This document shows, piece by piece, positions 6,857 to 44,725 of a stretch of 46,355 nt of DNA. The DNA is taken from assembly GCA_039934135.1 (NCBI GenBank), contig JBDTMT010000001.1, positions 1 through 46,355 on the forward strand, written 5' to 3'. Origin of the DNA: a bacterium. GTDB lineage: Bacteria; Desulfobacterota; Binatia; HRBIN30; CADEER01. Numbering within the stretch: position 1 is the stretch's first letter; each line of letters starts with the position of its first letter. The notes under the pieces were generated by a model that ran no database searches, was not told the origin of the DNA, and worked only from the letters and a program-made list of their open reading frames with translations. Made by a program: the position numbers and the translations under genes.

Positions 6857-6857
6857 C

Positions 6858-18654: not shown

Positions 18655-19446
18655 ATGATGGGCGCGCTCCTACTCGGCCTCGCCGCGCTGTTCGTCGTCG
18701 TCTGCGGCTGGAAGCTGGCGCTGCTCGGCGCCGCCATCGGCCGCCTGCGCAGGGTATCCCCGCGCCGGCGCCCGCTGCTGAGTCAGGCGATTCGCGCCCA
18801 CACGCTGCATCTGCTCCTCGCCGGCGTCGGCATCGCATTGCTGCTGATGGCCGAACGGCTACCCGGCGACGTCTATCTGTATGTCGCACCTCCGCCGCAC
18901 CCGATCGCGACAGCCACCGTGGCGACACCCGGCACGCCGCCGCCCACGCCGCCGCCGACCACTCCGCAAGAAGTGCACGCGATGCGGCTGGCGCGCGAGG
19001 AATTTGTCGACTTCCCGCCCTTCGCCCCAGGGTGCGCCTGCGATGACGAGAAAGCTCGGGACGACGAGGAGACGCAGAAGGTAAAGGACCAGCGCGCGCG
19101 CTCGGTCGAGGAAATGGGCCGACGACTGGCGGCCCAGTACAACAGCAACCAGCTGCGCTTCGTGCTTGTCGTCGGCACATTCGACCACACGTCGCTGAGC
19201 CCTGAGACGAACCGCCGCTATGACAGCAACACCGCGCTGGCGCAGGAGCGAGCCGAATGCGTCGCGCAGATGCTCAGGCCACTCCTCGAGCAGAGCGCCG
19301 CGGGCGCGGACTGGGACGAGATCCTGCACACCATGGTTGCCGGACCGCAGCATGCGCGCGGCCGACATCCCACGGAGCTCTTGCGCGCCCGAGATCGCGG
19401 CGTCCGCATTCTGGTCGGCGGCGACACGGTGGAAAGCAGAGGCTGA
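18655..19446 (+). CDS. Two-TM membrane protein with Pro-rich linker and OmpA/MotB-like C-terminal domain (tentative)
   Basis: Start MMGALLLGLAALFVVVCGW (18655). Second helix LHLLLAGVGIALLLMA. PPPTPPPTTP linker. C-terminal VVGTFDHTS...YDSNTALAQERAECVAQML...RDRGVRILV resembles the OmpA-like peptidoglycan-binding pattern. The stop overlaps the next start (TGATG). Confidence 0.5.
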   Translation: MMGALLLGLAALFVVVCGWKLALLGAAIGRLRRVSPRRRPLLSQAIRAHTLHLLLAGVGIALLLMAERLPGDVYLYVAPPPHPIATATVATPGTPPPTPPPTTPQEVHAMRLAREEFVDFPPFAPGCACDDEKARDDEETQKVKDQRARSVEEMGRRLAAQYNSNQLRFVLVVGTFDHTSLSPETNRRYDSNTALAQERAECVAQMLRPLLEQSAAGADWDEILHTMVAGPQHARGRHPTELLRARDRGVRILVGGDTVESRG

Positions 19447-22208
19447 TGACCAATCCAGCACCCCGTGCGCAGGCGCATTCGTCGCGCAGCTACCTGACCG
19501 ACACGTCGACTGAACACGACCGGCTCAATTTCTACGACACCGCGGTACGGGTCGCCGCGCGTCTGTCGCACCCGTCACAGCAGACGCCGCTCAGCGTCGC
19601 CGTCCAGGGCGCGGACGGCAGCGGCAAGACGACGTTCATGCGCTTGATGCGCGCCGCGCTAAAGGAGCAAAACAGCGCCTGCTGGAGCGTGTGGTACGAG
19701 CCCTGGCGTTTCGATACGGCGCGCGATGCCTGGCGCGGGCTGGTCTACGAATTCACCGACACTGTCGGCACCCCTCAGCGTCGCGGCCGGACATGGTTCG
19801 CCTCCGCCAAGGGATTGATGGAGCGGCGCTGGTCGTACGATCTGCTGCAAGCGGTCGAGGACGATCCGGGTGGTCCGGAGGTCACGCGGCAGTTCAGACG
19901 CTATCTCGAGCGCGTCGCCCAGCGCCTGAACGGTGCGCATGGACCGGCATCGCCGCTGGTGGTGGTCTTCATCGATGACCTCGACCGCTGCACGCCGGAG
20001 AGCGCTGCGGCCGTCCTGCAGGCGTCGACGCTCTTGCTGAACAGCCGCGGATTCGTGACGGTCTTCGGCCTCACGCCGGGCGCGTTCAACTCGATCGGCC
20101 GATCGGCCGCCGCCGGTTCCGGCACCAAGACCCGGATCGCCTCGCCCGAGCGCTTCTTCCAGATCGCGTTGCAAGTGCCGACGGTCAGTCGGGCCCAGTT
20201 CCGCGCCTACGTGGACGCGTGCGTCGATCAGAGCGCCTGCCCGTTCGATCGACGCTGGACGGATGTGCTGTCCTGGGTGCTGTTCCCCAGCCCGCGTGAC
20301 GTCAAGCGGTTCCTCAACTACCTGATCTCCGAGTGGGACAAGGCGGACAGTGCCCGGTTGCTGCCGAGCGAGGCATCGATCACCGCGGGCCACTCGACGC
20401 GCCCTGGTACGAACGACCCGAGCGTCGACGATGCGACGACGGCGGCGAGTGGTACGACGCTCGGCACGACGCCGCCAACGCCGAGCCCTCGTGCCGAGGC
20501 GGCCGGCGTGCTGCGCTCGTCCGCCGACGCGGCGCACTCCCAGTTCGTCCTGCTGGCTCTGCTCACGTGGCGCTTCCCCGAGGTCGCCGACTACCTGCGT
20601 GGCGCTCAGGCCGATCCGGACGCCTTCGACCGCCTGGTCCGCGCCGCGCTGCGCGCGGATGCCGAAGATACCGGAATCGAGGTCGCTGCCCCCGGCGATG
20701 CCAAGGAGGGAAGGGAGCACGGATTCCTGGCCGATCCGGCGCTGCGTGGCCTGATGATCGATTCCTTCGGCACGGCCGAAAGGGGGGCGCATCGTCCGAC
20801 CCTTGTTCCGCCGTTCCGGTCCCCGGCCGAGCTCGGTGGCTTGTTGTTCCACTTCGGCGGTGCGCCGTCGGCGGCCGATCCGCTCAGCGGGTCGCTCGGG
20901 CCGGTCAATCCGGAATGGTCGGCCACCACGAGCCTGCAGGAGGCGCGCGACCGCAGCGCGACGCGCGGCGACATGGCGGCGGCGAAGTGGAGCGCCGAGC
21001 TGCTGCAGCGCCGCCAGTCGACCGATGCGATCGTTAGCATCCGTGCCTATCGCGAGCAGGCGCGCAACAACCAGCAGATGGGTCTGCAGGCGGAGTCGCA
21101 CAATCTGGCGAACGAGGCGCTCGCCATCGCCGCGGGCAACAAGGTCTCGGCCGGGCAACGACCGCTTGCGTATGCCGAGGCACACCTCGCCCTCGCGGAA
21201 CACTTCGCCGCCTTCTCGCCGCTCAGCTCGGCGATCGACCAGGCGCAGGAGGCATGGACCTTCGCCCTCGAGGCCAAAGAATCCAACACCCAACTGCAGG
21301 CGCTGATCGCGTTAACGTATGCGCGCAAGCTCGACTGGCAGAATACCCAGGCGATCGCGGACTGCCGGCAGGCCCTCGAGCTGGACGGCAAGACGGGTGG
21401 CCTGCGCGACGTCACGTTGCGGCTTCTGCTGGCCGAGCTGCATCACCGTCAGGCGCGCCAACACCAGCGCGAATGCAAACAGGCCGCATGGCGCGCCGAG
21501 ATCGACGCGGCACTGGCGCAGAGTGCGCTCATCGATGCTGCGATTGCCGCCGCCCCGCGCGACGAGCGCCAGCGGTACGAACGCCTACGCAGGCGGCTGC
21601 TCGACGCGCAGCGCGACGGTCTCACGGCGGATCCCAACACGCCGAGCCAGCCGGTCGCCTTCATCAGCTACGCGCACAAGAATCCGGAGCCCTTCGGCCG
21701 CGTTCGGACGATCCTCGACGCCTGGAGGGTCAGCGGAAAGTTGCACGTGTGGGAGGACACGCAGATCCAGGTCGGCGCGCTCTGGCAACTTGAGATCGAG
21801 AGCGCCCTCGAAGAAGCCACGCATGCGATCATGCTCTCGTCGCCCGAGTACGAGGCATCGGAATTCATCCGTTGGGTCGAGCGCCCGCGCATCAACTCGA
21901 TGTTCAACCGGGGCGACATCACCCTCCTCATCATTCCGCTCGGCGGGGCGGTCACCAAGTCGACGCTGAGCGGCATCCAGTTCCTGTGGCCCCAGCCGCT
22001 CGATTCGTTGGACGAGGCGCATCGCGACGAAGCGTGGAAGGGCATCACGGCGAAGCTCGAGGCCATCTTCAACCCCCCGCCTCCGGCCGGCGGAGGAGTC
22101 ACGGCCACGGCGGCGGCGGGTAGCGAGGTAGGCAACGCCGCGCCCGTCGGGTCAACCGCGTCATCGGCGCCCCCGCCGTCGTCAGACAGGCCGTCCGCCG
22201 GTGGGTGA
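19446..22208 (+). CDS. KAP-family P-loop NTPase with helical-repeat (TPR-like) middle and C-terminal TIR domain
   Basis: Start MTNPAPR (19446). Walker A GADGSGKTT. KAP signature VVVFIDDLDRC and PRDVKRFLNYL. No TM insertion. Repeat-like alpha region. C-terminal TIR: VAFISYAHK...VWEDTQIQVGALWQLEIESALEEATHAIMLSSPEYEASEFIRWVE. Confidence 0.8.
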   Translation: MTNPAPRAQAHSSRSYLTDTSTEHDRLNFYDTAVRVAARLSHPSQQTPLSVAVQGADGSGKTTFMRLMRAALKEQNSACWSVWYEPWRFDTARDAWRGLVYEFTDTVGTPQRRGRTWFASAKGLMERRWSYDLLQAVEDDPGGPEVTRQFRRYLERVAQRLNGAHGPASPLVVVFIDDLDRCTPESAAAVLQASTLLLNSRGFVTVFGLTPGAFNSIGRSAAAGSGTKTRIASPERFFQIALQVPTVSRAQFRAYVDACVDQSACPFDRRWTDVLSWVLFPSPRDVKRFLNYLISEWDKADSARLLPSEASITAGHSTRPGTNDPSVDDATTAASGTTLGTTPPTPSPRAEAAGVLRSSADAAHSQFVLLALLTWRFPEVADYLRGAQADPDAFDRLVRAALRADAEDTGIEVAAPGDAKEGREHGFLADPALRGLMIDSFGTAERGAHRPTLVPPFRSPAELGGLLFHFGGAPSAADPLSGSLGPVNPEWSATTSLQEARDRSATRGDMAAAKWSAELLQRRQSTDAIVSIRAYREQARNNQQMGLQAESHNLANEALAIAAGNKVSAGQRPLAYAEAHLALAEHFAAFSPLSSAIDQAQEAWTFALEAKESNTQLQALIALTYARKLDWQNTQAIADCRQALELDGKTGGLRDVTLRLLLAELHHRQARQHQRECKQAAWRAEIDAALAQSALIDAAIAAAPRDERQRYERLRRRLLDAQRDGLTADPNTPSQPVAFISYAHKNPEPFGRVRTILDAWRVSGKLHVWEDTQIQVGALWQLEIESALEEATHAIMLSSPEYEASEFIRWVERPRINSMFNRGDITLLIIPLGGAVTKSTLSGIQFLWPQPLDSLDEAHRDEAWKGITAKLEAIFNPPPPAGGGVTATAAAGSEVGNAAPVGSTASSAPPPSSDRPSAGG

Positions 22209-22347: not shown

Positions 22348-23526
22348 ATGAAACTATGCTTCATTTCATACGCGAGGAACAGCAATCTCGACGGCCGGTT
22401 GACGAAGTTCGTCGAGAAGCTGCAGCAGCAACTCCCGGGGCACCTGCCTCACGGTACTAAGCCCGCCGATGTCGTGTTCTTCGATGTGATGGGCATCGAG
22501 AACGGCGACGAGTGGATGCTGCGTCTAGCGGAAGCCACGCGTCGTTGTCGGGTGTGCGTCTGCTTCTACAGTCCACCGTACTTCACGAGTGAATATAGCG
22601 GGCGAGAGGTGCAGGTGTTCCTGCAACGCGTCCATGATTGGAAGACCACGAATCCCGGGCGGGATGTGCAGGCGATCATCCCGGTCATTTGGAGACCCCA
22701 CCATCCGATCCCTGCCGTCTTGCAGGTATTCCAATACGCTCACCAGGGTCTGCCTCCCGCATACGTCGAAGACGGGTTGCACTCGCTCGCTATGCGAAAA
22801 GGCCAGCGAGACGCGTACAATAGAGTTCTCGAAATCCTTTCTGCACGGATCGCAGCTGCATTGCAGGGCGCGCCCCTACCCGATGGACCGCCGATTGCCT
22901 CGTTCGGACAGGTGGCGAGTGCATTCCACGTTGCGCCGAGCCCAACACGGTACGGTGCGTCTGTGATTCTACTCGCCACCCCGGAACGCCGGATGCAGCC
23001 ATTCGCCGCCGCGGCCGTGTCGCTCGATGTCCTGGTGGAGCGAGTTGCCAACAGAAGTGCGGTGCCGTTTCGCGAGATCAATCTCGGCGCACAGACCGCC
23101 GCCGACGTGGCTGCGTCGCAAGCCGCACGGGAGATGCCGGTGTTGGTCGCGGATCGTGCGTCGCTCAGCTCGCCACTCAACCAGCCGCTCGTTCGGGCTC
23201 TGGCGGCGACCTTTGACGCGTCTGCCACTGTGGTCGTCTTTGGCGATCCATCGCCAAATGCGTCCGATGCGGCCGCGGATCTCCGCGGTCTCATCAGCAC
23301 CGCATTCGTGCCGTGGGGCAGCGGTCTGGGATCGACGTCCTGCCTCGTGGCAACCGATCCGGCGATTTTCGAGTCGGAGCTGGAACGTCGATTGACGAAG
23401 GCTCGCCACGAGCTGATCTCGGCTGACCCGGCTGGGCGCGCTCAGCACTCCGGCTTGGAAGCGGAGGCCGCGGCTCGCGGCATCTCGGTCGGCAGTCAGC
23501 CCGTTCTGGCGAGTCCTGGTGCCTGA
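22348..23526 (+). CDS. TIR-like domain protein (FxsC-like architecture: N-terminal TIR-like domain plus uncharacterised C-domain)
   Basis: MKLCFISYARNSN...VVFFDVMGIENGDEWMLRLAEATRRCRVCVCFYSPPYFTSEYSGREV. Visibly lower GC and GC3 than flanking backbone genes. Confidence 0.7.
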   Translation: MKLCFISYARNSNLDGRLTKFVEKLQQQLPGHLPHGTKPADVVFFDVMGIENGDEWMLRLAEATRRCRVCVCFYSPPYFTSEYSGREVQVFLQRVHDWKTTNPGRDVQAIIPVIWRPHHPIPAVLQVFQYAHQGLPPAYVEDGLHSLAMRKGQRDAYNRVLEILSARIAAALQGAPLPDGPPIASFGQVASAFHVAPSPTRYGASVILLATPERRMQPFAAAAVSLDVLVERVANRSAVPFREINLGAQTAADVAASQAAREMPVLVADRASLSSPLNQPLVRALAATFDASATVVVFGDPSPNASDAAADLRGLISTAFVPWGSGLGSTSCLVATDPAIFESELERRLTKARHELISADPAGRAQHSGLEAEAAARGISVGSQPVLASPGA

Positions 23527-23527
23527 T

Positions 23528-25417
23528 ATGCCGCCACGACGAATTGTAGAGTCGGCGAAGAAAAAGCCGCGCGCGGCCGCCTCGTCCAAGAAATCGGCGC
23601 GCGCGCCCGTCGGGAGAGTCATCACTTTCTATTCCTACAAGGGGGGCACGGGGCGCACGATGGCGCTGGCCAACGTCGCTTGGATTCTGGCCAGCAGCGG
23701 CCGCCGTGTGCTGGTGATCGATTGGGACCTCGAGGCACCCGGTCTGCACCGCTACCTGCATCAATTCCTCGACGACAGCGAAGGTACCAACCGGCCCGGG
23801 CTCATCAACTTCCTGTGGGAGTTTGTCGAGGGGGCTCGCGCGCACGTCGATTCCCCGAAGACCGAGTGGTTCGCATCCTATGCGAACCTCGGGCGCTATG
23901 CCTGTTCGCTGGAGTGGGAGTTCCCGGGAGACGGGACGATCGACTTCATCACCGCTGGCCGTCAGGGTTCGTCGTATGCGTCCAGCGTCACGTCATTCGA
24001 CTGGAACGAATTCTATGAGCGGCTCGGTGGGGGAACCTTCCTGGAGGCGGTCAAGAAGAACCTACGTAGCGAGTATGACTACGTCCTGATCGACAGCCGC
24101 ACCGGCATCTCCGACAGCTCGGGGATTTGTACCATCCAGATGCCCGATGATCTGGTCGTCTGCTTCACGCTCAACACGCAGAGCATCCGCGGCGCGGCGG
24201 CGACTGCGGAATCGGCATTCCAGCAGCGCATTACCCCCAGTCGCGCACCCGGGCTGCGGGTATGGCCCGTGCCCACTCGAGTTGAGCTGGCCGAGCGCGA
24301 TCGACTGGAGCGAGCCCGCGACGAAGTGCGGGCTCGATTTCAGAGATTTCTGCATCATCTGCCAGCGAAGAATCGGGTCGCGTATTGGGGGCGGGTGGAG
24401 GTGCTGTACCAACCCTACTACGCCTACGAGGAGGCACTGGCGGTGCTCACCGACCGCCCACAGCAAGTGGGGTCGCTCTTGCAGTCGTTCGAGCATCTCA
24501 CAAGCTACCTGACCGATGGGTCCGTTGAGTCGCTCGCCAGAGGCGTCGGTCAGACGGGACGGTCGGCTCCGCTTCCACCTGTCGGAGAGGATGTGGGTCC
24601 GTTCTTCGTCAGCTACAGTCGAGCCGATGAGGAATTCGCATCACGCCTGGTTCACGCACTTCGTGACCGGCTGGGATCCGCTTCGGTACTCTGGGATCAG
24701 AATCTCCTCGCCGCGGGCGATCCCTTCGGCGAGAAGCTCGCGGTCGCCATGAACGACGCTCAGGCGGTTCTGCCACTCGTCGGTCCGTCGTACGTCGAGA
24801 GCCCGACGACCGAGAGGGAGATTGCGTACGCGCTCGCCCGCGGCTTGCGAGTCATTCCCTTGCTGCTGCCCGGCGTGACCTGGTCTGACCTCTCCGTGCA
24901 GCGCGAGCCGTTCGAGTCGCTCAGGCGATTCTACGGGTTTGAGTTTGGCAAGGGCCTGCCGTCGACGAAGAAATCCTCCGATCCGCTCCGAGTCGGGAGC
25001 GAGGGCGACGTCGACCAACTGATTGAGTTTCTCCGAACCGCGAGTAGCCGGGGACGAGGCGTGGCGGTGGCGGATCCCGACGATCCGCATCGCGGGCAGT
25101 TCGGTGGCCGCAGCGAGCGGAACGGCTTCACCCTGAGCGCCAGGGTTGCGTCGCTCAGCCGCAGCTGGTTCGAGCTCGAGCTTCGGGTGACACGGTATGG
25201 CGCGCCGACAAGCGATACAGGCGAAGTGGAATTTCATATCCATCCGACGTTCGACCCGCCGGTGCGCCGTGTGCGTGGCGGGAAAGACGGCGCAACACTG
25301 ACGCTCGAGACGTACGGAGCCTTCACGGTTGGTGCGATCGTTCTCGACTCACTCTCGATGTTGGAGCTCGACCTCTCGACGCTCAAGCAGGCGCCTAAGG
25401 TCTTTCGAGAGGGGTGA
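23528..25417 (+). CDS. ParA/MinD-like ATPase with variant Walker A (KGGTGR), fused to a TIR domain and a C-terminal pYEATS-like domain
   Basis: ATG 23528 (alternative GTG at 23519). ITFYSYKGGTGRTMALANVAWILASSGRRVLVIDWDLEAPGL. TIR: FFVSYSRADEEFASRLVHAL...VLWDQNLLAAGDPFGEKL...GPSYVESPTTEREI. C-terminus: DPHRGQFGGRSERNGFTLSARV...VEFHIHPTFDPP...LETYGAFTVGA...LELDL. Confidence 0.75.
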   Translation: MPPRRIVESAKKKPRAAASSKKSARAPVGRVITFYSYKGGTGRTMALANVAWILASSGRRVLVIDWDLEAPGLHRYLHQFLDDSEGTNRPGLINFLWEFVEGARAHVDSPKTEWFASYANLGRYACSLEWEFPGDGTIDFITAGRQGSSYASSVTSFDWNEFYERLGGGTFLEAVKKNLRSEYDYVLIDSRTGISDSSGICTIQMPDDLVVCFTLNTQSIRGAAATAESAFQQRITPSRAPGLRVWPVPTRVELAERDRLERARDEVRARFQRFLHHLPAKNRVAYWGRVEVLYQPYYAYEEALAVLTDRPQQVGSLLQSFEHLTSYLTDGSVESLARGVGQTGRSAPLPPVGEDVGPFFVSYSRADEEFASRLVHALRDRLGSASVLWDQNLLAAGDPFGEKLAVAMNDAQAVLPLVGPSYVESPTTEREIAYALARGLRVIPLLLPGVTWSDLSVQREPFESLRRFYGFEFGKGLPSTKKSSDPLRVGSEGDVDQLIEFLRTASSRGRGVAVADPDDPHRGQFGGRSERNGFTLSARVASLSRSWFELELRVTRYGAPTSDTGEVEFHIHPTFDPPVRRVRGGKDGATLTLETYGAFTVGAIVLDSLSMLELDLSTLKQAPKVFREG

Positions 25418-25423: not shown

Positions 25424-26599
25424 TCACGTCCTTGCGAACGGGCCGAAGTGCGTGGCGACCTCTACCTCGCGTTGGCCGACGGCGCGGCCGATGCGGCGGA
25501 GGCTGTCGATCTGATCGACCGCATCCATCTGTTGCACCGCTTCGGAACGCAGGTCGCCGCAGCCGAGCGCTTCGAGGCCGCCGGGGCTGAGGTCGGCGTT
25601 GTAGCGCACGTAGCGGAAAAGACGTTTGTGGTCGCGCGCTCCGTCCCGCTCATCCTCCGCCGGCAAGACCAGATCGCCCATCTCGCGGTCAATCTCGGCG
25701 CCGTGCACGCAGCGGCCGAAGGTGCGGCAATTCACATCCTGATCGACCTGGATGGCGTACATCAACTCGCTGGGCAGGTTCTGGAGATTGCCGAACAGGT
25801 TGCGTTGCGTGGCGTCGGTCACCCCCGCCGCCGCCCCGGTGCCGACCGAGACGAGCAGCAGGTCCGACTCGCCGGTCTTCCAGTTCAGTCGATAGGCCGG
25901 TTGCGTCGCCATGCGGAACAGCAGGAAGGCGGGGTTGTTGTACGGCGTGACGCCACCGTCGACGAAGACGCGCACGTCGTCCGGCCGCTTGGGATTGAGG
26001 CTAATGATCTCGGGTGGGAAGAAGACGGGTGCCGCCGTGCTGGCACGGACCAGCTGCCAGAGCGGGATGCGCAGATTGCAGTCGTCGCGCTCGCAGTCGT
26101 TGTACTTGGCAAAGGGGTTGCTCGAGATCGGCCACGGGGAGTCTGTGGTGATGTTGCGCGTGACGACCAGCAGCAGGCAGCGCAGTCGATCGCTGGTCAG
26201 GTCGGCGGTGCCGCCGCGTCCGTCGTGGAACACCTTGCGTAGCGTCTGTGCCAGCGGCTCGTCCTTGTAGAGGCTGCCGAGCAGCGAGGTGACGCGCTTT
26301 AGCACCGAGGTCTTGTCGAACATGTCCGCGCCCGAAGAGCGATAGAACGTGAGCAGCTCATCGGTCGACATGCCGATCGCCAGGCCGGCGGCGATGATCG
26401 AGCCGGTGCTGGTGCCGCCGATATAGTCGAAGTAATCGCCGAGCCGCTGGATACCGGTCTCGCGATCGATCTGTCGCTCCATTTCGGCGAGGATCTCCAG
26501 CGTCAGCGCGCCGCGGATGCCGCCGCCGTCGAGAGCCAGGAGCTTGCGCGTTCGCTCGGTGGCGAACCGCTCCCTCAGGTGCTGCGGCCAATCGGTCAT
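25424..26599 (-). CDS. Patatin-like phospholipase
   Basis: LALDGGGIRG oxyanion motif, GGTSTGS nucleophile elbow, FVDGGV Asp motif. Convergent with the previous gene, with a 6-nt gap. Confidence 0.85.
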   Translation of the reverse strand: MTDWPQHLRERFATERTRKLLALDGGGIRGALTLEILAEMERQIDRETGIQRLGDYFDYIGGTSTGSIIAAGLAIGMSTDELLTFYRSSGADMFDKTSVLKRVTSLLGSLYKDEPLAQTLRKVFHDGRGGTADLTSDRLRCLLLVVTRNITTDSPWPISSNPFAKYNDCERDDCNLRIPLWQLVRASTAAPVFFPPEIISLNPKRPDDVRVFVDGGVTPYNNPAFLLFRMATQPAYRLNWKTGESDLLLVSVGTGAAAGVTDATQRNLFGNLQNLPSELMYAIQVDQDVNCRTFGRCVHGAEIDREMGDLVLPAEDERDGARDHKRLFRYVRYNADLSPGGLEALGCGDLRSEAVQQMDAVDQIDSLRRIGRAVGQREVEVATHFGPFART

Positions 26600-26786: not shown

Positions 26787-26885
26787 TTAGGCCCGCCGCC
26801 GATCTGACAAAGGCGTTACGCACCCTGCTTGCGCTCGTGTCGAAAGAGCAGGTGCTCGTACGGGACTACATAGCGAGAGGTCTCG

Positions 26886-28871
26886 ATGACTATCCGTCCT
26901 CATGCATTCGTCGCCATGCCGTTCGGCGCCAAGCCCACTGCCGATGGCACGCTGCTCGACTTCAATCGCGTCTATCTCGAGCTGATCCAGCCCGCGTTGG
27001 AGAGCGCGGGACTGTCGAGCTTCCGCGCCGACGAGGAGTTGCGCGGCGGCGACATCAAGACCGACATGTTTCAGGAGTTGCTGGTCGCTGACCTGGTGGT
27101 GGCGGATCTGACGATCGACAATCCCAACGTCTGGTACGAGCTCGGTGTTCGGCATGCACTGCGCGCGCGCGGTGTCGTTCTGCTCTGTGGTGGCCGGACG
27201 ACCACGGCCTTCGATCTCTATACCGATCGCAAGCTGCGCTACGGGATCGCCGACGGTGCGCCGGATGCGCGCACGCTGGAGACCGATCGCAGCCGGCTGG
27301 CGGCGATGGTCCAGGCGACGATGGAGTCGTGGCACGGTCGCAAGATCAGTCCCGTCTACCAGCTCCTGCCGAACCTACAGGAGCCGGACTGGAAGACGCT
27401 GCGCGTTGGCGACGTGCGTGAGTTCTGGGATCAGCACGAGGCGTGGGAGCGACGCGTCGACTTGGCGCGCCGGGACGAGCGCATCGGTGACCTGCTGGTG
27501 CTGGCCGACGAGGCGCCGGTCGCCGCCTTTCGCGCCGAGGCCTGGATCAAGGCGGGCCAGGCGCTGCGCAAAGCACACCTGTTTCTCTTCGCCCTCGAAC
27601 AGTTGGACCGTGGTCTGGCGATCGAACCGCTTCACATCACCGGGCTGCGGGAGCGCGGTATCTGCCTGCAACGCCTCGCGCTTATGGGACTCGCCGGCTA
27701 CTCGCTCGAGCGCGCGCGAGATCACTACCGCGACGTCCTCACGCACTATCCCAACGACCCTGAGACCTGGGCTCTCCTGGGCCGCGCCGACAAGGATGCC
27801 TGGACGGCCGCCTGGCGGCTCAAGGATCGAACACCTGTCCAACGCCGGGAGGATGCCGCCTACGAGGACGCGCTCCTGCGTGCTGCCATTGTCAGCTACG
27901 CGAAGGGCTACCGGGTCGACCAGAACCACTATTACTCGGGGATCAACGCGCTCACCCTCATGCATCTCCATGACGACCTCGTCGAAGGAGCGCGCTACCA
28001 GCGTGACTCGGAGATTATGCGCGGCGCCGTACGCTTCGCGGCGGAGGGCGAAGCGGATCGCGACCAGCTCTTCTGGGCGAAGGCCACGATCGGCGATCTC
28101 GAAGTGCTCGTTGGGACGCCCGACACCGTGCAGCAGGCATACAAGGACGCCATCGCCCTCAACGACAAGGATCCGTTCGCTCTCAACTCGGCGCGCGACC
28201 AACTGCTGATGCTGCAGGAGTTGAGCTTTCGGCCGGAGGCGGTCGCGGCGGGTATCGCCACCTTCGACCGCGCGCTCGCTCGCCTCAAGCTACCGGAGCA
28301 ACAATGGGAGCCGCGCCAGGTGTTTCTGTTCAGCGGCCACATCGTTGACGCGCCCGGGCGGCCCCAACCGCGCTTCCCAGCGAGCAAGGTCGACGCCGCG
28401 CGGCAACGGATCGCCGAGGTGTTGGATCGTCACGCCGCGGGACCGGACGACCTCGCCTACTGCCAAGCAGCCGCCGGCGGCGACCTCCTCTTTCTCGAAG
28501 CGTGTCAGCAGCGCCAGGTGCGTTACCGCATCCTGTTGCCGTTTCCCGAGGCAACGTTCCTCACTCGGTCCGTTCTGCCGTCGACCGACGGGGCGGCATG
28601 GCGCGACCGCTACTTTGCAGCGCTCGGCACCGCCGCCGCGCCGCGCATCATGCCCGACGAGCTCGGCCCGTTGCCTCAGCACGTCGACGCCTTCGAGCGC
28701 TGCAACCTCTGGCTGCTGTATAGCGCGCTCGCCTGTGGCCTCGCGCGGGTGCGTTTCGTCTGCTTGTGGGACGGCGGTGGCGGCGACGGCCCGGGCGGTA
28801 CCGCTCACATGTACAACGCGGTGTCGGCGCGCACCGGCCATGTCGATCGAATCGATGTCCACTCGCTCTGA
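26886..28871 (+). CDS. TIR-like/deoxyribohydrolase-like N-domain, TPR (DUF4071/TRAFs-binding-like) core and C-terminal SLOG-like domain
   Basis: N-terminus: AFVAMPFGAKP...VADLVVADLTIDNPNVWYELGVRHAL. Long helical-repeat middle. C-terminus: VFLFSGHIVD...AAGGDLLFLEA...LLPF...CLWDGGGGDGPGGTAHM (Gly-rich loop plus PGGxGT-like motif). Confidence 0.7.
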   Translation: MTIRPHAFVAMPFGAKPTADGTLLDFNRVYLELIQPALESAGLSSFRADEELRGGDIKTDMFQELLVADLVVADLTIDNPNVWYELGVRHALRARGVVLLCGGRTTTAFDLYTDRKLRYGIADGAPDARTLETDRSRLAAMVQATMESWHGRKISPVYQLLPNLQEPDWKTLRVGDVREFWDQHEAWERRVDLARRDERIGDLLVLADEAPVAAFRAEAWIKAGQALRKAHLFLFALEQLDRGLAIEPLHITGLRERGICLQRLALMGLAGYSLERARDHYRDVLTHYPNDPETWALLGRADKDAWTAAWRLKDRTPVQRREDAAYEDALLRAAIVSYAKGYRVDQNHYYSGINALTLMHLHDDLVEGARYQRDSEIMRGAVRFAAEGEADRDQLFWAKATIGDLEVLVGTPDTVQQAYKDAIALNDKDPFALNSARDQLLMLQELSFRPEAVAAGIATFDRALARLKLPEQQWEPRQVFLFSGHIVDAPGRPQPRFPASKVDAARQRIAEVLDRHAAGPDDLAYCQAAAGGDLLFLEACQQRQVRYRILLPFPEATFLTRSVLPSTDGAAWRDRYFAALGTAAAPRIMPDELGPLPQHVDAFERCNLWLLYSALACGLARVRFVCLWDGGGGDGPGGTAHMYNAVSARTGHVDRIDVHSL

Positions 28872-31826: not shown

Positions 31827-31827
31827 G

Positions 31828-32640
31828 ATGTCCGGACGCACGTGGGTCAGGGTGATCCTGCTCCTGTTGCTGGTGCCGCAACGCGGTGCGGCGGCGGAGC
31901 TCGTCGGCTACCTGGCCGAGTTTTCCGACGTCGTCTACTGCCCGCGCGACGCCGCGCCATTGCGGCAGAGCGAGAAGCCGCGCGATCTCCACTTTGGCGA
32001 CGCCGTGATCACGCGCGACGCGCCCGAGCGCAGCGCGGCGGCGAGAGTGTTTCTCGCCGATCGCCAGACGATCGCCATCGCCGGCAACTCCGAGCTCGTC
32101 ATCTCCGGCGTCGACACGCCCGACGGCATGCGCTCCACCAGCGTGCGACTGAACAGCGGCCGCATCCGCGTCTACGTCAGCCCGGGCGCCCACTGTCAGG
32201 TCGAGACGCCTGCCGCCGTCGTCACGTGCCGGCACACCGATTTCGTCGTCGCCGTCGATGCCAGCACCCACGCCACCGACGTCGTCGTCATCGACGGCAT
32301 CGTCGAGGTTCGCGGCGTCGGCCCGGGCGCCGACCACCCGGTGACGGTCCTGCCGTACCAGATGCTGCACGTGGCCGTCGGTGGTCCAGCGGGCCAGCCC
32401 AGCGTCGTCGGTGACGCGGCGCGCGCCCGCTACAGCGCCGGCCTGGATCTCATCGGAGACGGGACCTCCGAGCGTCTGGAGATCGGCCAGCGGCTCGCCG
32501 ATGGCAGCGAGGTGCTCACCGTCGATCGGCCGGACCCACCTTCTTCGGAGCCCTGGGAACCCGGTCCCCGTCAGGAGCAACCGGGAACGATTGCCAATCC
32601 GCTGTTTGGAGTGCCCGGCAATCTGATCGTTGACTATTGA
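31828..32640 (+). CDS. Secreted FecR-domain protein
   Basis: ATG 31828, 2 nt after the previous stop. Signal peptide VILLLLLVPQRGAAA. FecR-like core ...IAIAGNSELVISG...VRLNSGRIRVYV...VETPAAVVTCRHTDFVVAV...VVIDGIVEV. Confidence 0.6.
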   Translation: MSGRTWVRVILLLLLVPQRGAAAELVGYLAEFSDVVYCPRDAAPLRQSEKPRDLHFGDAVITRDAPERSAAARVFLADRQTIAIAGNSELVISGVDTPDGMRSTSVRLNSGRIRVYVSPGAHCQVETPAAVVTCRHTDFVVAVDASTHATDVVVIDGIVEVRGVGPGADHPVTVLPYQMLHVAVGGPAGQPSVVGDAARARYSAGLDLIGDGTSERLEIGQRLADGSEVLTVDRPDPPSSEPWEPGPRQEQPGTIANPLFGVPGNLIVDY

Positions 32641-35600
32641 GCTGGTGCGCTCCAGAGCGCCACCTTCGGCCAGGCCGCGGGTGGGTCGCTGCGCGGAGGG
32701 CGTGGGCACGCAAACATCGTGGCCGCGGCTGGCGTTGGAATGGCGCGGGACTCTTTGGATCGACGCAGCAGCTCGTCAACCGGCACGAAATCGAACCATC
32801 TGTGGATCCGAGCGGTACCGTCAGCACTCGCGGTCGCGACTGCTAGACCATCGGGGCGGAAAGCCACCTGCATCACCGGCCCCGTGTGGCCTGGTAACTC
32901 GCCGATCTCAGTTCCTGTCGCGCTATCCCAGATACGCACTCGTCCTTCCTCGTCGGCTGTAATGACCTGTGCGTTGGCGCCTGGCCGGAAGCGCGCGCTC
33001 CGCATCGGCGTCTGGGTTCTTGCCGGTCGGAGCGTTACGGCATGCCGTCCGCTGGCTACGTCCCAGATGTGCGCCCCACCGTCTGCGGCTGACGCGATGA
33101 GGAGTCGTCCATCGTCGCTGAAGGCGAGATCGTTCACGCGCCCGTTCGCGCCCGCCAGTGAACGCGAAGTGGCGGTCGGTCCCAAGCTCCAGAGCCGCAC
33201 CGCGCCATCGCTGCCGCCAGCGGCGACCAACGCATCGTCCTGCGGGCTGATGGCTGCCGTGGTGAGCGCGCCGAGATCGACGTCCGGACCCTCGTGCGCC
33301 CAGTCTGCGGCGCGCCATCGCTGCAGCATGCCGTCGGACGCGGCGATCAGGAGCGCGCCGTCATGCGCGAAGGTGACGAAGCGCAGAGTCTCGCCCGCCG
33401 CGCAGCTCACCTCTGCGATGTGCGCGCAGCTCCTAGCGTCCCAGATCGCTACCGTGCTGCCGTCATCGCCGGTTGCCAGCCATCGTCCCTGGCGATCCAT
33501 CGCGACGTATCGCAGCGCCGCCGGGCCACTGGCGAGGGGCGGCGGCGTTATCGTGGCGATCAACTCGCCCACGGCGTTCCACGCCCGCGCGGCGCCATCG
33601 CTGCTCGCGGTGAGCAGGTACTGACCGTCGTCGCTGAACACGGCCGCGTTGACGGCGTCGTCGTGCCGCATCGGTCGGCCGGCGTCGTCGGATGCCCAGA
33701 GCCGCACACCGTCATCTGCGCCGGTGGCGAGGAGATGGTCTTCGGCACTGAACGCCAGCCCCCGCACGGCCGAATCGTGTCCCGCCAGGCGGGCGATCGG
33801 TTCGCCGGTGCTCGCCTCCCAGACGATCGCCGTACCATCCGTGCTGGCGGTCGCGACGAAGCGACCGCGCGCGCTGTATTCGACCGCGGTGATCGGGCCC
33901 GTATGTCCCTTGAGGCGTATTGGTGCGTCCGGTTCCCCCCAGATGGTCGCGGTGCCGTCCTCATAGCCGCTCAGCGCGAAGCGACCGTCGGGGCTGAACG
34001 CGATATCATTTGACTGGGTGACCTTGGGCCGGCTGTCAGGCGTGAAGGCGAACTGGATCCCGGCGCCATATTCTTCGAGCTGCTGCTCGGTCAGTGAGCC
34101 GGACGTCCAGGTTCCGTCGCTCGTCCACACGCGGAGTCGATGGCCATCGATGTAGGCGAGGTGTCGACCGTCTGGGGCGAACGCCGCACTGGCGACCGGG
34201 CGGTGCTCGACGGGAAGATCCGCGATCTCGGCCCCGTCCCGCCACAAGCGCACGCCCTTGGCGCCGGCGGTGAGCACGATCGCATCATCCGGCGTCAGCG
34301 ACACCGCCTCCACGTTGTCGTCGGGATCGAGGGCCCGCGGATGGTCGCTCAGCGATATGTCGCGCACGAAGGCACCGTTCCAGGTCCCGACGACGATGAT
34401 CGGCTTGCGTGTGCCCAAGGCCACCGCCCGCACCTGGCCGGGGTCCGCCGCCCAGCGTAGTTGCCGGTCGACGGCGAGGTTGCGCCGTAAGGCCGGCGCG
34501 CCGATGGCCGGGCGCAACGCGGTCGCTTTGCGCGCCAGGCGGACGCTGTCCTGCGGCCGTCGCTCGCGCGCCGCCTCGGCGTCGCTGACCAGCTGTTGCG
34601 CGTCGGCCGTCTGCCTGGCGACATATGCGCGGATGCCCAACCAACCGGTGATCGATAGGACCACGAGCGCGCCCGTGGCCGCGGCGCCGAGGGACAGCCG
34701 GCGGCCGCGGCGGGCGCCAGCGCTGGCAGCGATGAACTGCGTTTCGACGTCGTCGAGACTGAGCCAACCGTCGCGTTGTAAGGCGCGCGCCTCATCGAGC
34801 GCACGGCCGCGGTAGAGATCCCCCGGGTCGCGTCCGGCGCAGTTCCAAAGCGCGGCGGCGGCGGCGAGCCGCGACCGCGCGCGCAGTTGCTCGCTGTGGC
34901 TCTGCACCCAGGAGCGCAGGGGCTCGAAATGCGTGATGAGCGTCTCATGGGCGAGCGTGACGCAGCTTTCGCCATTTTGGTCGGTGGCGATGAACAGGCG
35001 CGCGCCGATGAACGCGTCGATGAAGGCCCGCCGATGCGGGTCGCTCGCCAACGTCGCCATCCGCGCGTAGCGACGCTGGACGCGCTCGCCCGATGTCTCA
35101 CCGAGGGAGGGCGCGGCCGGGGAGATTTGCACGAGGTGCGCGAAGACGTCGCCAGCGGTGTTCCGGGCGGTCGGATCGAGACGGTCCCAGGTGTCGCGCG
35201 CACGCCGGTTGATCGCGCCCTCGAGGCCGCCCATCGCGTCGTAGGCGGCATGGGTGAGGACGCGGTCCGCGGTTCGCTGCGCGTACAGCGCGTCGAGCAC
35301 GAACTGCAACAGCGGGAGGTTCTGGGGCGAGGCGATGGCGTCGTCGCGCAGGCGCTCGTCCAGCAGCTGGCCGGTCTTGGGGTGCGCCTCGAAACGCAGC
35401 GCAGCCAGGCGGGCGGGCAGGCGGATCATCTGGCCGACTTCGGCGGCATCGGGCCAGCGCAGGTCGTATTGCCCGTTGCCGAGCTTGAGCTCGTCGAGTT
35501 CGGGGAGCTCGTGGCAGCGGGCATAGAAGTCGCTGCGCAGCGTCGCCAGCACGTGTACGCCACGGCGAACGAGACGATTGACGACGGCCATGAACGCCGC

Positions 35601-36800
35601 GCGCTGTTCGCGTGTGATCTGCTCGTCGAACAGCTCCTCCATCTGGTCGATCACCAGCACCAGTCCAACCTTCGGTGCCTTCAGATCGGACAGCTTGGCG
35701 CGCACCTCGTTCGCCTCCGCCGTTCGCTCATCGCGCTCGAGGCTGTCGATGTAATCGTCGATGGTTTTTGCCTGCTTCCCCCGTTCCAGTTGGCCGGCTT
35801 GCAGCAGCGACTCGCGCAACGCGCCCACCGTCTCGTCCAACGCGTTGCGCAGGCGTTCGGCGGTGACCTCGCCGGCGGCCAAACACGGGAGCGCGGTGGG
35901 TCCGATCAGTGCTTGGGCGAGTGCCGCCAGCGGGTCGGCGCCGGCTTGGCGCGGTCGCAGGATGGCGTGACGCCACACCTCGATCGCGCCGACGGCGCGG
36001 GCGCGGAAGAGGCGTGGCAGCACGCCCGCACGCAGCAGTGACGATTTGCCGCTGCCGCTGACGCCGAGGACCAGGACGAAAGGCCGGGCATCGGCCGCCT
36101 GGCGATTGAGCTGATCGAGGATGCCGGTGATGGCGCCGGTGCGGCCGAAAAAGATCGCCTCGTGCTGCAGGTCAAAGGCCTCCAGGCCGCGATATGGCGA
36201 GTCGGGCCACGGGGGGTCCTCATCCCCTCCTGTCTCCGAGACGGACAGGGCACGAGTGACCAGCTCGGTCAGGTCCTCGCCCAGGAGCTGGGCGAACTCC
36301 TGGGCACTGGCGTAGCCCTTGTAGGCACCTTTCCACGCGCCATCGTCGGTGCGAATCTGACGTTCGAGGAACGCCGTGAGGCGCTCGTGCTGCTGCTTGG
36401 CGTCCTCCCAGGTCTTGGCAGGATAGTTGACCGGGCGGCTGTTGCAGTACAGCAGCACACGCGGCGTTCCACGGGCGCGTCCAGCCTCCAAGGCGGTCTC
36501 GAGCTCATAGGCCGTGCCCGACTCGTAGCGCGTGCCGTCCGCCCGCTTGTAGCGGTCCCCTGTCAGTGGCGTGCCCATGCGGCTCCAGACGACTCCGACG
36601 ACGATGTCGCAGGAGGCCGCTTCGCGTAGCGATTCCTGCGGAGCCTTGGCCGCTTCCAACGGCTGCGATTCCCAGAAGTACGATCCGATCGTCGCCTGGT
36701 TGGCGAACTCCCGGCCGAGTTGCTCGATGACCCGTCGCGCTTCCTCGCGCTCGACGCGCACGTCGCTCGGTGAGGAGAGGAAGATGCTGAATTTCCGCAT
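32634..36800 (-). CDS. DUF4062/TIR-like N-domain, STAND-type P-loop NTPase (nSTAND-like), single TM helix and WD40 beta-propeller repeats
   Basis: ATG 36800 (alternative GTG 36818). FSIFLSSPSDVRVEREEARRVIEQL...CDIVVGVVWSRMGT...GTAYELETAL. Walker A GVSGSGKSSLLRAG, Walker B LVLVIDQMEELF. Hydrophobic helix LGAAATGALVVLSITGWLGI. Many GH...W(D/E) WD40 units to the C-terminus. Confidence 0.8.
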   Translation of the reverse strand: MRKFSIFLSSPSDVRVEREEARRVIEQLGREFANQATIGSYFWESQPLEAAKAPQESLREAASCDIVVGVVWSRMGTPLTGDRYKRADGTRYESGTAYELETALEAGRARGTPRVLLYCNSRPVNYPAKTWEDAKQQHERLTAFLERQIRTDDGAWKGAYKGYASAQEFAQLLGEDLTELVTRALSVSETGGDEDPPWPDSPYRGLEAFDLQHEAIFFGRTGAITGILDQLNRQAADARPFVLVLGVSGSGKSSLLRAGVLPRLFRARAVGAIEVWRHAILRPRQAGADPLAALAQALIGPTALPCLAAGEVTAERLRNALDETVGALRESLLQAGQLERGKQAKTIDDYIDSLERDERTAEANEVRAKLSDLKAPKVGLVLVIDQMEELFDEQITREQRAAFMAVVNRLVRRGVHVLATLRSDFYARCHELPELDELKLGNGQYDLRWPDAAEVGQMIRLPARLAALRFEAHPKTGQLLDERLRDDAIASPQNLPLLQFVLDALYAQRTADRVLTHAAYDAMGGLEGAINRRARDTWDRLDPTARNTAGDVFAHLVQISPAAPSLGETSGERVQRRYARMATLASDPHRRAFIDAFIGARLFIATDQNGESCVTLAHETLITHFEPLRSWVQSHSEQLRARSRLAAAAALWNCAGRDPGDLYRGRALDEARALQRDGWLSLDDVETQFIAASAGARRGRRLSLGAAATGALVVLSITGWLGIRAYVARQTADAQQLVSDAEAARERRPQDSVRLARKATALRPAIGAPALRRNLAVDRQLRWAADPGQVRAVALGTRKPIIVVGTWNGAFVRDISLSDHPRALDPDDNVEAVSLTPDDAIVLTAGAKGVRLWRDGAEIADLPVEHRPVASAAFAPDGRHLAYIDGHRLRVWTSDGTWTSGSLTEQQLEEYGAGIQFAFTPDSRPKVTQSNDIAFSPDGRFALSGYEDGTATIWGEPDAPIRLKGHTGPITAVEYSARGRFVATASTDGTAIVWEASTGEPIARLAGHDSAVRGLAFSAEDHLLATGADDGVRLWASDDAGRPMRHDDAVNAAVFSDDGQYLLTASSDGAARAWNAVGELIATITPPPLASGPAALRYVAMDRQGRWLATGDDGSTVAIWDARSCAHIAEVSCAAGETLRFVTFAHDGALLIAASDGMLQRWRAADWAHEGPDVDLGALTTAAISPQDDALVAAGGSDGAVRLWSLGPTATSRSLAGANGRVNDLAFSDDGRLLIASAADGGAHIWDVASGRHAVTLRPARTQTPMRSARFRPGANAQVITADEEGRVRIWDSATGTEIGELPGHTGPVMQVAFRPDGLAVATASADGTARIHRWFDFVPVDELLRRSKESRAIPTPAAATMFACPRPPRSDPPAAWPKVALWSAPAQ

Positions 36801-36850
36801 GTCGTTGGGTGGCCGCACGCCACCGGCATCGGCCCGCGCTCCGCCGCCGT

Positions 36851-36870
36851 CAATTGGGACTTTCCCGTAG
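36851..36870 (-). promoter_or_regulatory. Island motif copy (CTACGGGAAAGTCCCAATTG in gene orientation), abutting a TTGACG -35-like hexamer
   Basis: 50 nt upstream of the ATG at 36800, oriented toward it. The TTG of the motif is part of TTGACG (36848-36853, minus strand). Confidence 0.5.
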
Positions 36871-37021
36871 AAGGTTCACACGGAGCCACCGAGCCGTCTC
36901 CCGTCGCGCCCCCCAATCCCGGCCGAGTCGCCCGTCGTTGCGTGATTCGCGGCCCTTGCCGCTGCCGGCCGCGCCACCTACAAGCCGTCGACGGCGGAGC
37001 GCGCCGCAACGGAGGGCCGTC

Positions 37022-37702
37022 ATGATCACGCGCCGTGAAACCCTGCGCCAGCTGCTGATCGGCACAGTCGGGCTATTCAGCGCCGCGGGCTGTGCCAGAC
37101 TGAGCGCCGAGGCACCCTCCATGGCCGCGTCGTCCTATCGCCGGGTATTTCTTTTCAGCGGGCATATGATCGACGCAGCGGGCCGCGCCACGCCGCGCTT
37201 TCCGGCCGACAAGGAGGCGATCGCCGCCGCCGCCATCGGCGCCGCGCTCGACGCTCGCGGCTGCGGCGGCGGCGACCTCGGCATCTGCGGCGGGGCGTGC
37301 GGCGGCGATCTGCTGTTCGCCGAGGCGGTGCTGGCGCGCGGCGCGCACCTCCAGCTGCTGCTGCCGTTCGACGAGCAGACGTTCCTGAGCGAGTCGGTCG
37401 ATTTCGCCGACGCCGGGTGGCGGCCGCGGTTCTTCGCCGTCAAGCAGAAGCCGCACACCGTGACGCAAGTCGCTCCCGAGGCGCTCGGGCCGCTGCCGCC
37501 GGGTGCCAACCCGTACGAGCGCGAGAATCGCTGGCTCCTCGATACGGCGCTCGCCCACGGTGCCCAGCGACTCGACTTCATCTGCCTGTGGGACGGCGGC
37601 GGCGGCGACGGTCCCGGCGGCACGCGCCACATGGTTGAACAGGTCGAAGCGGCTGGCGCCCACGTCACCTGGCTGGATACCCGCACGCTCTGGACGGTCT
37701 GA
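37022..37702 (+). CDS. Tat-signal lipoprotein consisting of a stand-alone SLOG-like domain (paralog of the C-terminus of 26886..28871)
   Basis: ATG 37022 after GGAGGG. MITRRETLRQLLIGTVGLFSAAGC (twin-Arg plus lipobox). VFLFSGHMID...ACGGDLLFAEA...LLLPF...CLWDGGGGDGPGGTRHM aligns block for block with residues ~470-660 of the 26886 protein. Confidence 0.65.
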   Translation: MITRRETLRQLLIGTVGLFSAAGCARLSAEAPSMAASSYRRVFLFSGHMIDAAGRATPRFPADKEAIAAAAIGAALDARGCGGGDLGICGGACGGDLLFAEAVLARGAHLQLLLPFDEQTFLSESVDFADAGWRPRFFAVKQKPHTVTQVAPEALGPLPPGANPYERENRWLLDTALAHGAQRLDFICLWDGGGGDGPGGTRHMVEQVEAAGAHVTWLDTRTLWTV

Positions 37703-44627: not shown

Positions 44628-44725
44628 CACGTCTCTCCGATCGGGTAGCGGGGTGCCGAGCTTTGCCCAAAACAACGAACAACCGAACGACTCGGGGCCT
44701 GGGAGCTCTTGGCAAGCCGTGCGTA

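Follow-up and report, generated by a model that had tools for sequence, protein, structure and literature searches.

The locus described here raises the question of what a single protein with a TIR-like N-terminus, a long helical middle, and a Rossmann-like C-terminus is doing in an island of TIR genes, and whether it belongs to an immune system that signals through nucleotides. The protein is 661 residues long and is encoded on the forward strand at 26886..28871 (ATG start, 661 codons plus stop, from the open reading frame list and translation) of a 46,355-nucleotide stretch of a Binatia genome (contig JBDTMT010000001.1 of assembly GCA_039934135.1, positions 1 to 46,355), which we refer to as the window. 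It has an N-glycosidase - TPR-S - SLOG layout, TPR-S standing for Tetratricopeptide Repeats-Sensor, and we hold with moderate confidence that it is a long-form relative of the effectors ThsI and BcTpr, in which an N-glycosidase effector is followed by a TPR-S/ASK-like solenoid and a fused YpsA/YspA-like SLOG domain, and is gated by a nucleotide signal derived from TIR proteins. It is a credible candidate variant of a known immune system, and its putative function is most likely that of a signal-gated, nucleotide-depleting N-glycosidase effector.

The reading frame is a genuine gene and not a chance frame, because a homology search returned 2,459 homologous proteins at E<=0.001 (among 8,000 candidates scored), the best 120 of which are 66–72% identical over 98–100% of the length. 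Named homologues span several phyla and include Nitrospira, Pyrinomonadaceae, Gallionella, Thermodesulfobacteriota, and Gammaproteobacteria, and are labeled in their sources as 'TRAFs-binding domain-containing', 'DUF4071', or 'TPR' proteins; mean column identity in a 30-sequence alignment of the family is 78%. We also observe that the N-terminal domain matches are 60–80% identical, which is very high for a putative defense gene, and that the named sources of relatives comprise Nitrospirota, Acidobacteriota, Proteobacteria, Cyanobacteria, and Chlorobiaceae, with one metagenome-assembled genome labeled Thaumarchaeota. Such conservation across phyla therefore suggests frequent horizontal transfer together with strong constraint along the whole chain. 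Comparison of the whole protein with PDB chain sequences gave designed TPR (tetratricopeptide repeat) proteins at E>0.03 and nothing else, a search of NCBIfam gave no match, and no promoter or terminator signal in 26400-29100 rose above the level expected from shuffled sequence.

An earlier, sequence-only reading of this region had divided the protein into a TIR-like or deoxyribosyltransferase-type module of the kind that begins DUF4071 proteins, a long helical-repeat region, and a Rossmann-like, SLOG-like end. The frame and the motifs that it quoted are exactly as claimed (FVAMPFG at residues 8-14, ADLT at 73-76, NPNVWYELG at 79-87, AAGGDLLFLEA at 529-539, and GPGGTAHM at 635-642), and the model of the N-terminal domain, the Pfam matches of the middle, and the model of the C-terminal domain each agree with the three-part layout. 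The models bear out its interpretation too: the C-terminal end came out as a Rossmann-like fold akin to SLOG proteins, and the N-terminus as akin to deoxyribosyltransferases and, less closely, to TIR domains, where the opposite results would have counted against it.

The N-terminal domain (residues ~1-165, 26886..27380, + strand) is, as judged from an AlphaFold2 (AF2) model built from a 37-sequence alignment (predicted local distance difference test, pLDDT, 77.7), a nucleotide N-glycosidase of the deoxyribosyltransferase (NDT)/DNPH1/MilB type with a TIR-like fold, lying outside the TIR family proper, and is the predicted effector. The best Foldseek match in the PDB is MilB (4jem, E 3.4e-5, TMq 0.54), with RCL/DNPH1 and BcmB following and TIR-STING, the retron-Ec86 effector, and the SARM1 TIR lower down the list; the Foldseek probability is 1.00 for MilB, RCL, and DNPH1. 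A Pfam scan of residues 1-190 gave no family match, and none to TIR or TIR_2, and the PADLOC 'TIR effector' model matches the domain weakly (E 1.2e-4). Within the NPNVWYELG motif (27120..27146, + strand), N79, P80, N81, and E85 are kept in at least 90% of the 37 sequences, and Y84, L86, and G87 are invariant. BcTpr residues I10, M11, N80, P81, N82, and E86 correspond by position to A10, M11, N79, P80, N81, and E85 here; N80, P81, N82, and E86 of BcTpr have been mapped onto the MilB active site, and the N82A and E86A substitutions abolish both NAD+ depletion and defense (bioRxiv 10.1101/2023.05.26.542521). Glu85 (27138-27140, + strand) is thus the predicted catalytic nucleophile by its position in the motif, with NPN as the predicted phosphate-binding loop, and because the fold matches, the retained NPN/E85 motif, and the BcTpr mutants agree, the domain looks like a catalytically competent MilB-type N-glycosidase.

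The middle of the protein contains a TPR-S core at residues 238-359 (27597..27962, + strand; Pfam PF20308, E 3.4e-15, 56.9 bits where the cutoff is 27.6), overlapped by an ASK-like MAP3K_TRAF_bd helical region at residues 289-450 (27750..28235, + strand; Pfam PF13281, formerly DUF4071, E 8.4e-7, 28.8 bits, above the curated cutoff of 24.1) that extends as far as the SLOG domain. Both matches are in keeping with the helical-repeat middle that had been proposed. The second match is to the central regulatory (TRAF-binding) region of the animal kinase ASK1/MAP3K5, from which the protein differs in having no kinase domain and in having bacterial flanking domains, and we note that a kinase-TPR-S-SLOG relative does exist (P0145).

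The C-terminal domain (residues 475-661, 28308..28868, + strand) is modeled by AF2 (residues 461-661, pLDDT 84.5, predicted template modeling score 0.84) as a Rossmann-like alpha/beta fold with a parallel sheet and five beta-alpha units. Its top structural match in the PDB is YpsA (2nx2; E 9e-5, probability 1.0, TM 0.53-0.59), followed by ShosA, the Moco carrier protein, nvTRPM2, LOG, DprA, the MHR1/2 regions of TRPM2/3/7/8, YgdH, and TT1887, and in the viral library (BFVD) it matches DprA-like, YspA, and DUF2493 proteins. The E-values are modest, 9e-5 at best, yet the matches are mutually consistent. These PDB neighbors, which make up almost all of the best matches, belong to the SLOG superfamily as defined by Burroughs et al. 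2015, and the GGD and GDGPGGT Gly-rich loops, which are invariant or nearly so in the family, are SLOG signatures. An alignment of 42 diverse stand-alone and fused family members has ten invariant positions (G484, H485, D488, R492, R496, G531, D533, F558, W572, and G637), and the segments SGHxxD, GGD, PFxE, and GDGPGGT, which carry most of them, lie directly after strands beta-1 to beta-4 respectively. The C-terminal ends of the strands are the usual ligand site in Rossmann-like folds. Three of these elements are readily located in the gene, namely the FSGHIVD...R...RFP motif directly after beta-1 (28329..28379, + strand; invariant G484, H485, D488, R492, and R496), the AAGGDLLFLEA loop and helix after beta-2 (28470..28502, + strand; invariant G531 and D533), and the GPGGTAHM loop after beta-4 (28788..28811, + strand; invariant G637), the last having a pLDDT below 50 in the model, consistent with a flexible loop.

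On the strength of this modeled fold we place the C-terminal domain in the SLOG superfamily, as predicted for it from its motifs, and regard it as a predicted nucleotide-ligand-binding regulatory domain. The further suggestion of a PGGxGT-like motif as in LOG holds in part: the Gly-rich loop is present and GPGGTAHMY recalls the LOG motif PGGxGTxxE, but it is one residue shorter and has no catalytic Glu, and because this Glu is missing we place the domain outside the LOG family though within the superfamily. The reading of the domain as a LOG enzyme is ruled out by the missing motif Glu and by the lack of any match to Pfam Lysine_decarbox. Its closest affinity appears to be with YpsA/YspA (YAcAr, DUF2493), YpsA being the top structural match and YspA appearing in the viral library; the Pfam family YAcAr ('YspA, cpYpsA-related SLOG') is weakly matched by seven of the 42 family members (best E 0.003). 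It differs from those families in its low identity (~16%), in its own motifs SGHxxD, RxxxRFP, GGD, and GDGPGGT, and in that SLOG domains of this type, when in multi-domain proteins, always follow TPR-S. The SLOG-family profile had no match among PDB sequences, and hhalign of that profile with E. coli Smf/DprA as a single sequence was uninformative (probability 0.6%).

The known system closest to this architecture is type VIII Thoeris. Its effector ThsI ('CMP hydrolase and TPR') is activated by canonical cyclic ADP-ribose (cADPR), which the type VIII TIR alone makes once infection begins; cells that have the system are also poisoned by cADPR supplied from outside. The TPR region 'presumably' perceives cADPR, the Aravind group having predicted a role for this TPR in TIR signaling, and the type VII SLATT effector ThsH, which sometimes shares an operon with ThsI, answers to canonical cADPR too (bioRxiv 10.64898/2025.12.03.692087). 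Like ThsI, the 661-residue protein has a MilB-like N-glycosidase with a catalytic Glu followed by TPR-S, and has TIR genes nearby. Its extra length over the two-domain, ~400-residue ThsI comes from the SLOG domain that follows the TPR region in the same chain. Whereas ThsI has a small adjacent ThsB, the TIR genes here lie 1.5–7.6 kb upstream and encode large multi-domain TIR_2 proteins, and a patatin co-occurs. BcTpr is similarly built, with a MilB-like glycosidase and a C-terminal TPR domain, but is 415 residues long and lacks SLOG; it binds cADPR with a dissociation constant of 1.9 uM (bioRxiv 10.1101/2023.05.26.542521). The shared N-glycosidase and TPR-S core of these two proteins lends support to the idea, put forward in the sequence-only reading, of nucleotide second-messenger logic at this locus.

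Relatives on plasmids strengthen the connection with ThsI. A tblastn search of plasmids with the protein gave 62 records, most of them for 'TRAFs-binding domain-containing proteins' aligning at ~30% identity with residues 7-354 or 4-408; those with inspected annotations are 402 and 447 residues long. The 402-residue TPR-S protein of an E. coli IncP plasmid (TPR-S E 1.5e-17) is 30% identical over 351 residues (E 4e-29, residues 11-354), the catalytic loop aligning as SNANAIYELGVRHAL against DNPNVWYELGVRHAL. At locus L011 on the E. coli IncP plasmid NZ_CP147111.1 (record 1143-4339) two small TIR genes come after a compact ThsI-like gene, and a DUF4231/SLATT gene runs in the opposite direction; with this gene content, the conjugative plasmid seems to carry a mobile locus that combines type VII and type VIII Thoeris. 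Plasmids of Klebsiella, Citrobacter, Morganella, Aeromonas, and Hafnia encode the L011 ThsI-like protein as well, and a Rhizobium plasmid has a similar gene set. Because residues 11-354 resemble proteins that have the ThsI architecture and are encoded in operons with TIR and SLATT genes, the protein can be read as ThsI with a fused SLOG domain. A contig scan with the published Yersinia ThsB TIR found one Campylobacter locus of type VII layout (TIR, TIR, SLATT), with no ThsI. We also note that on a Rhizobium leguminosarum plasmid (L013, CP050566.1, locus 5031-6907) a gene similar to the target appears to be broken into three annotated 'hypothetical proteins' and may be a pseudogene, with genes for DUF4231, DUF3380, patatin, and a further DUF4071 protein after it.

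The comparison with ThsA of type I Thoeris (SIR2-SLOG) is instructive for the C-terminal domain, since ThsA likewise has an effector enzyme fused to SLOG in a TIR-linked system, and its SLOG domain binds 3'cADPR, which switches the enzyme on. However, the ThsA enzyme is SIR2 and there is no TPR-S, whereas our protein has an N-glycosidase and TPR-S, and its SLOG is nearest to YpsA/YspA and not to the Thoeris SLOG recognized by Pfam. A broader context is given by the 2020 prediction of TPR-S conflict systems by Burroughs and Aravind, which, in the second-hand summary given by the BcTir/Tpr preprint, has TPR cores occurring alone or with TIR, YspA (SLOG), and patatin, as well as with LSDAT, calcineurin, and caspase partners that are sometimes fused (bioRxiv 10.1101/2023.05.26.542521). 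As far as that summary goes, the predicted partners fit this island.

The SLOG domain is not confined to proteins of this length. An exhaustive HMMER search with the C-terminal domain found 2,665 representatives at 50% clustering (136 at E<=1e-30), with stand-alone forms of ~200 residues, forms of ~290 residues with a short helical N-terminal extension, ~660-residue proteins like the one described here, and larger ones. In all nine of the multi-domain members scanned TPR-S directly precedes SLOG and the rest of the protein varies, with ParA/MinD (~1,050-residue fusions P0128 and P0131), protein kinase, patatin, AAA_35 plus TIR, or SLATT_1 ahead of the pair, and in one arrangement a sigma-54 activator domain behind it. 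Because TPR-S-SLOG is kept in these nine members while the other domains change, it behaves, as far as domain composition indicates, as a fixed unit to which different output domains are joined. We put forward tentatively, and with considerable doubt, that the module is portable and works much as CARF or SAVED domains do, its two parts together receiving a TIR-derived nucleotide, and that it gates at least six types of output, namely N-glycosidase, patatin, kinase, SLATT pore, TIR, and ParA-type ATPase. If so, SLOG would provide a second ligand site in the long form that is absent from the short ThsI, and the protein could then act as a coincidence detector, or recognize some product of the neighboring multi-domain TIR_2 proteins that is not canonical cADPR.

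Related loci show that linkage to TIR and patatin genes is recurrent. Six loci came from an exact-protein look-up and 53 from metagenomes, and their open reading frames were screened by phmmer with the window proteins and with a hidden Markov model (HMM) of ten TIR domains; the counts refer to the 39 of these loci whose flanks reach 4 kb or more, were made by hand, and include near-duplicate loci. A TIR gene is present in 22 of the 39 and is directly adjacent on the same strand in 16, the stop and start codons of the TIR gene and the orthologue often overlapping. Patatin is present in 17, and one or other of the two in 28. The TIR partners are of several kinds. A bacterial ROCO GTPase that ends in a TIR domain (LRR-Roc-COR-TIR) is encoded immediately downstream of one orthologue and overlaps its stop codon (L028, 3657-6479), and neighbors of similar size with similar weak matches are present in L037, L039, L042, L056, and L063. 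Directly downstream of another is a SIR2_2-TIR_2 gene (L003, 10006-11391; the SIR2_2 match, E 7.6e-5 and 23.3 bits, is just under the cutoff of 24.5), whose product, of 461–475 residues across these loci, is matched at E ~1e-130 by the neighbors in L023, L027, L030, L033, and L060; it is followed in L003 by genes for an nSTAND1-WD40 protein, a patatin, and a DUF4062 protein. A ParA-TIR protein is encoded directly upstream of the L008 orthologue, and L021 has a TIR-TPR partner. Proteins with nSTAND1/WD40 domains flank the orthologues in L003, L024, L034, and L048, and the adjacent nSTAND1-WD40 frames of L024, L034, and L047 match the TIR HMM too. DUF7379-CHAT proteins are encoded near orthologues in L002, L048, and L052, and at L014 a stand-alone SLOG gene is followed by a caspase gene.

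In the window itself, three TIR genes lie upstream of the protein on the same strand. The sequence-only reading had counted four other TIR modules in the neighborhood, of which three are confirmed as Pfam TIR_2 within 7.6 kb upstream; a possible fourth is the DUF4062 domain that begins the nSTAND1-WD40 protein encoded downstream. They encode a 983-residue KAP-family P-loop NTPase - TIR_2 protein (19257..22208, with PADLOC matches to QatA/PifA-like NTPases), a 392-residue TIR_2 protein (22348..23526, TIR_2 E 1.3e-10), and a ParA/MinD-type ATPase - TIR_2 - pYEATS protein (23519..25417), which is a candidate signal generator. The combination of ParA/MinD, TIR_2, and prokaryotic YEATS in one protein is unusual, and matches the PADLOC candidate PDC-M28B. 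Six TIR domains of this TIR_2 type, when aligned, share the customary FISY...D and W...EI motifs, and a Glu lies close to where the catalytic residue would be expected, in a part of the alignment that is ambiguous. Between these genes and the target, on the reverse strand and divergent from it, is a gene for a patatin-like phospholipase (25424..26599; Patatin E 5e-27, PADLOC phospholipase 'Effector' PDLC00758 E 3.5e-45), the C-terminal 163 residues of which have no Pfam match. At most related loci patatin lies downstream of the orthologue on the same strand, often within 100 bp (L001, L008, L019, L032, and L046 were compared), and the upstream, divergent position in the window therefore suggests that the cassette has been rearranged.

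Further components of the same kind are present downstream. A second SLOG paralogue is separately encoded at 36809..37702 (+ strand, BLASTP E 1e-33), its C-terminal 186 residues being 49% identical to residues 477-661 of the target, with the true start likely to be Met72 at 37022. Read from Met72 it begins MITRRETLRQLLIGTVGLFSAAGC, which resembles a twin-arginine signal peptide with a lipobox-like Cys; export would be odd for a nucleotide-sensor fold, and no such leader is seen in the stand-alone family members aligned. On the reverse strand are a 1870-residue DUF7379 - lipase (LCAT/DUF676-like) - CHAT protease - TPR-S protein (39063..44675), which is the second TPR-S protein of the island, and next to it a caspase (Peptidase_C14, 44782-45753). 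Together with their relatives, these two genes suggest a split TPR-S, SLOG, and protease system in the same island. Another TPR-S protein is encoded after patatin at L034 (16920-18299) and L001 (11324-12964, with a DUF4062 N-terminus), and two or three TPR-S proteins that differ in their N-terminal domains are therefore common in such islands. The window also encodes a 1394-residue DUF4062 - nSTAND1 NTPase - WD40 protein (32634..36818, - strand), with DUF4062 at the N-terminus. Three forward-strand genes immediately downstream of the target encode a lipoprotein-like protein with no Pfam match (~28840-30330; signal peptide, LALAAC lipobox, and Pro/Thr-rich linker), the start of which is apparently 17-32 nt ahead of the target stop codon, a TPR plus SlipAM (Slam-like outer-membrane) protein (30243-31826), and a FecR-domain protein (31624-32640). 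These are probably a surface-lipoprotein export cassette inserted in the island, and we have dropped them as components of the system, as none is present at the six orthologue loci with Pfam-listed genes.

A plausible mechanism can be proposed, in which the neighboring TIR proteins, each with its own NTPase or repeat sensor, would convert NAD+ to an ADP-ribose-derived signal on infection. This signal would be bound by the TPR-S-SLOG regulatory module, perhaps in a SLOG crevice lined by the invariant His485, Asp488, Arg492, Arg496, and Asp533 and by the GPGGT loop, and binding would relieve autoinhibition or drive oligomerization. The N-glycosidase would then cleave, in a Glu85-dependent manner, the base-ribose bond of an abundant nucleotide, either NAD+ or a nucleoside or deoxynucleoside monophosphate, starving the phage or arresting the cell in an abortive infection.

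Several observations weigh against this reading of the protein as a signal-gated relative of ThsI. ThsI and BcTpr, the characterized relatives, have no SLOG domain and yet respond to cADPR or bind it, which makes it uncertain that SLOG is the sensor; the signal may be perceived by TPR-S alone, or by both. At E<=1 the protein matches no SLOG family in Pfam or NCBIfam, and the SLOG-family profile gave none above threshold when compared with curated SLOG families. The 'SLOG patatin' and 'SLOG and 4TM' candidates gave no defense in E. coli (bioRxiv 10.64898/2025.12.03.692087). Full-length identity of 60–71% across phyla is unusually high for a defense gene, about ten of the 39 loci have no screened partner, and some orthologues lie among metabolic genes (L005 and L006, for example). 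In BLASTP, two of the window TIR proteins showed no similarity to one type VIII ThsB TIR, and because of this the signal should not be assumed to be canonical cADPR.

Three other explanations can be considered. The protein could be an autonomous single-chain system, with the N-glycosidase acting as an NADase that makes a cADPR-type molecule, the neighboring TIR genes belonging to separate systems, and TPR-S-SLOG responding to a cue from infection or, in a feed-forward loop, to what the glycosidase itself makes. BcTpr, and not BcTir, is reported to make the cADPR isomer and deplete NAD+, and in a survey that the same preprint summarizes, 'Core Tpr alone' occurs more often than any other arrangement (29 of 78; bioRxiv 10.1101/2023.05.26.542521); about 17 of the 39 loci have no TIR gene in the available flank, and the L005 and L006 orthologues are isolated among metabolic genes. 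A missing TIR gene is weak evidence, however, because many of the contigs are short, and a self-contained enzyme sits poorly with the 16 loci at which a TIR gene abuts the orthologue on the same strand, and with the findings that the type VIII TIR alone made cADPR and that external cADPR is toxic (bioRxiv 10.64898/2025.12.03.692087). We consider this explanation unlikely. That the protein instead has no anti-phage role, and is a conserved scaffold for stress or development akin to the ASK signalosome, the conflict genes nearby being coincidental or serving regulated cell death, would account for the very high conservation (the 78% mean column identity in 30 sequences), the metabolic neighborhoods, the homology to the ASK1 regulatory region, and the multi-domain NTPase-repeat partners, conflict systems with components of that type being described by Kaur et al. 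2020 as preponderant in multicellular prokaryotes. But the short homologues have been shown experimentally to be anti-phage effectors, relatives are carried on plasmids, and TIR, patatin, caspase, and CHAT effector genes turn up repeatedly beside members of the family; we regard such a scaffold role as highly improbable.

The remaining explanation concerns SLOG alone, which might be catalytic and not a receptor, converting or destroying the nucleotide signal or hydrolyzing a nucleotide, and so serving as an off-switch or a second effector. The invariant His-Asp pair of SGHxxD, two Arg, and one Asp could form an active site, LOG and YgdH structures are among the fold matches, and N-glycosidases are known within the SLOG superfamily, LOG and PpnN among them. 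The domain nonetheless has PGGTAHM in place of a Glu-containing PGGxGTxxE and no Lysine_decarbox match, and its nearest fold neighbors, YpsA and TRPM MHR1/2, are ligand binders. The ThsA SLOG is a ligand binder too, and the domain acts as a constant regulatory module behind swappable effectors; a catalytic SLOG is thus distinctly unlikely, and we favor the signal-gated effector in which SLOG, alone or with TPR-S, would bind a TIR-derived nucleotide and thereby activate Glu85 for defense.

Parts of this system are already known, in that the domain family is named in Pfam, the association of TPR-S with TIR, YspA, and patatin was predicted in 2020, and the short form has been validated experimentally. 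In the portions of the literature available to us, with the 2020 prediction known second-hand, we found no description of the 660-residue N-glycosidase-TPR-S-SLOG fusion as a distinct and widespread family, of a constant TPR-S-SLOG module behind many effector types, or of the variable large NTPase-TIR partners; the term TPR-S is absent from the main text of two eLife papers by Kaur et al. The first description of type VIII Thoeris dates only from late 2025, and perception of cADPR by ThsI is attributed to the TPR region only 'presumably' (bioRxiv 10.64898/2025.12.03.692087). The family described here is a natural fusion of the ThsI core to a recognized nucleotide-binding fold, and it is large and common in environmental bacteria such as Nitrospira. 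The ligand of its SLOG domain would clarify how the TPR-S effector family is switched on, whether ROCO-TIR, KAP-TIR, ParA-TIR, and SIR2-TIR proteins signal through diffusible nucleotides as the small ThsB does, and how the homologous TPR region of animal ASK kinases became regulatory.

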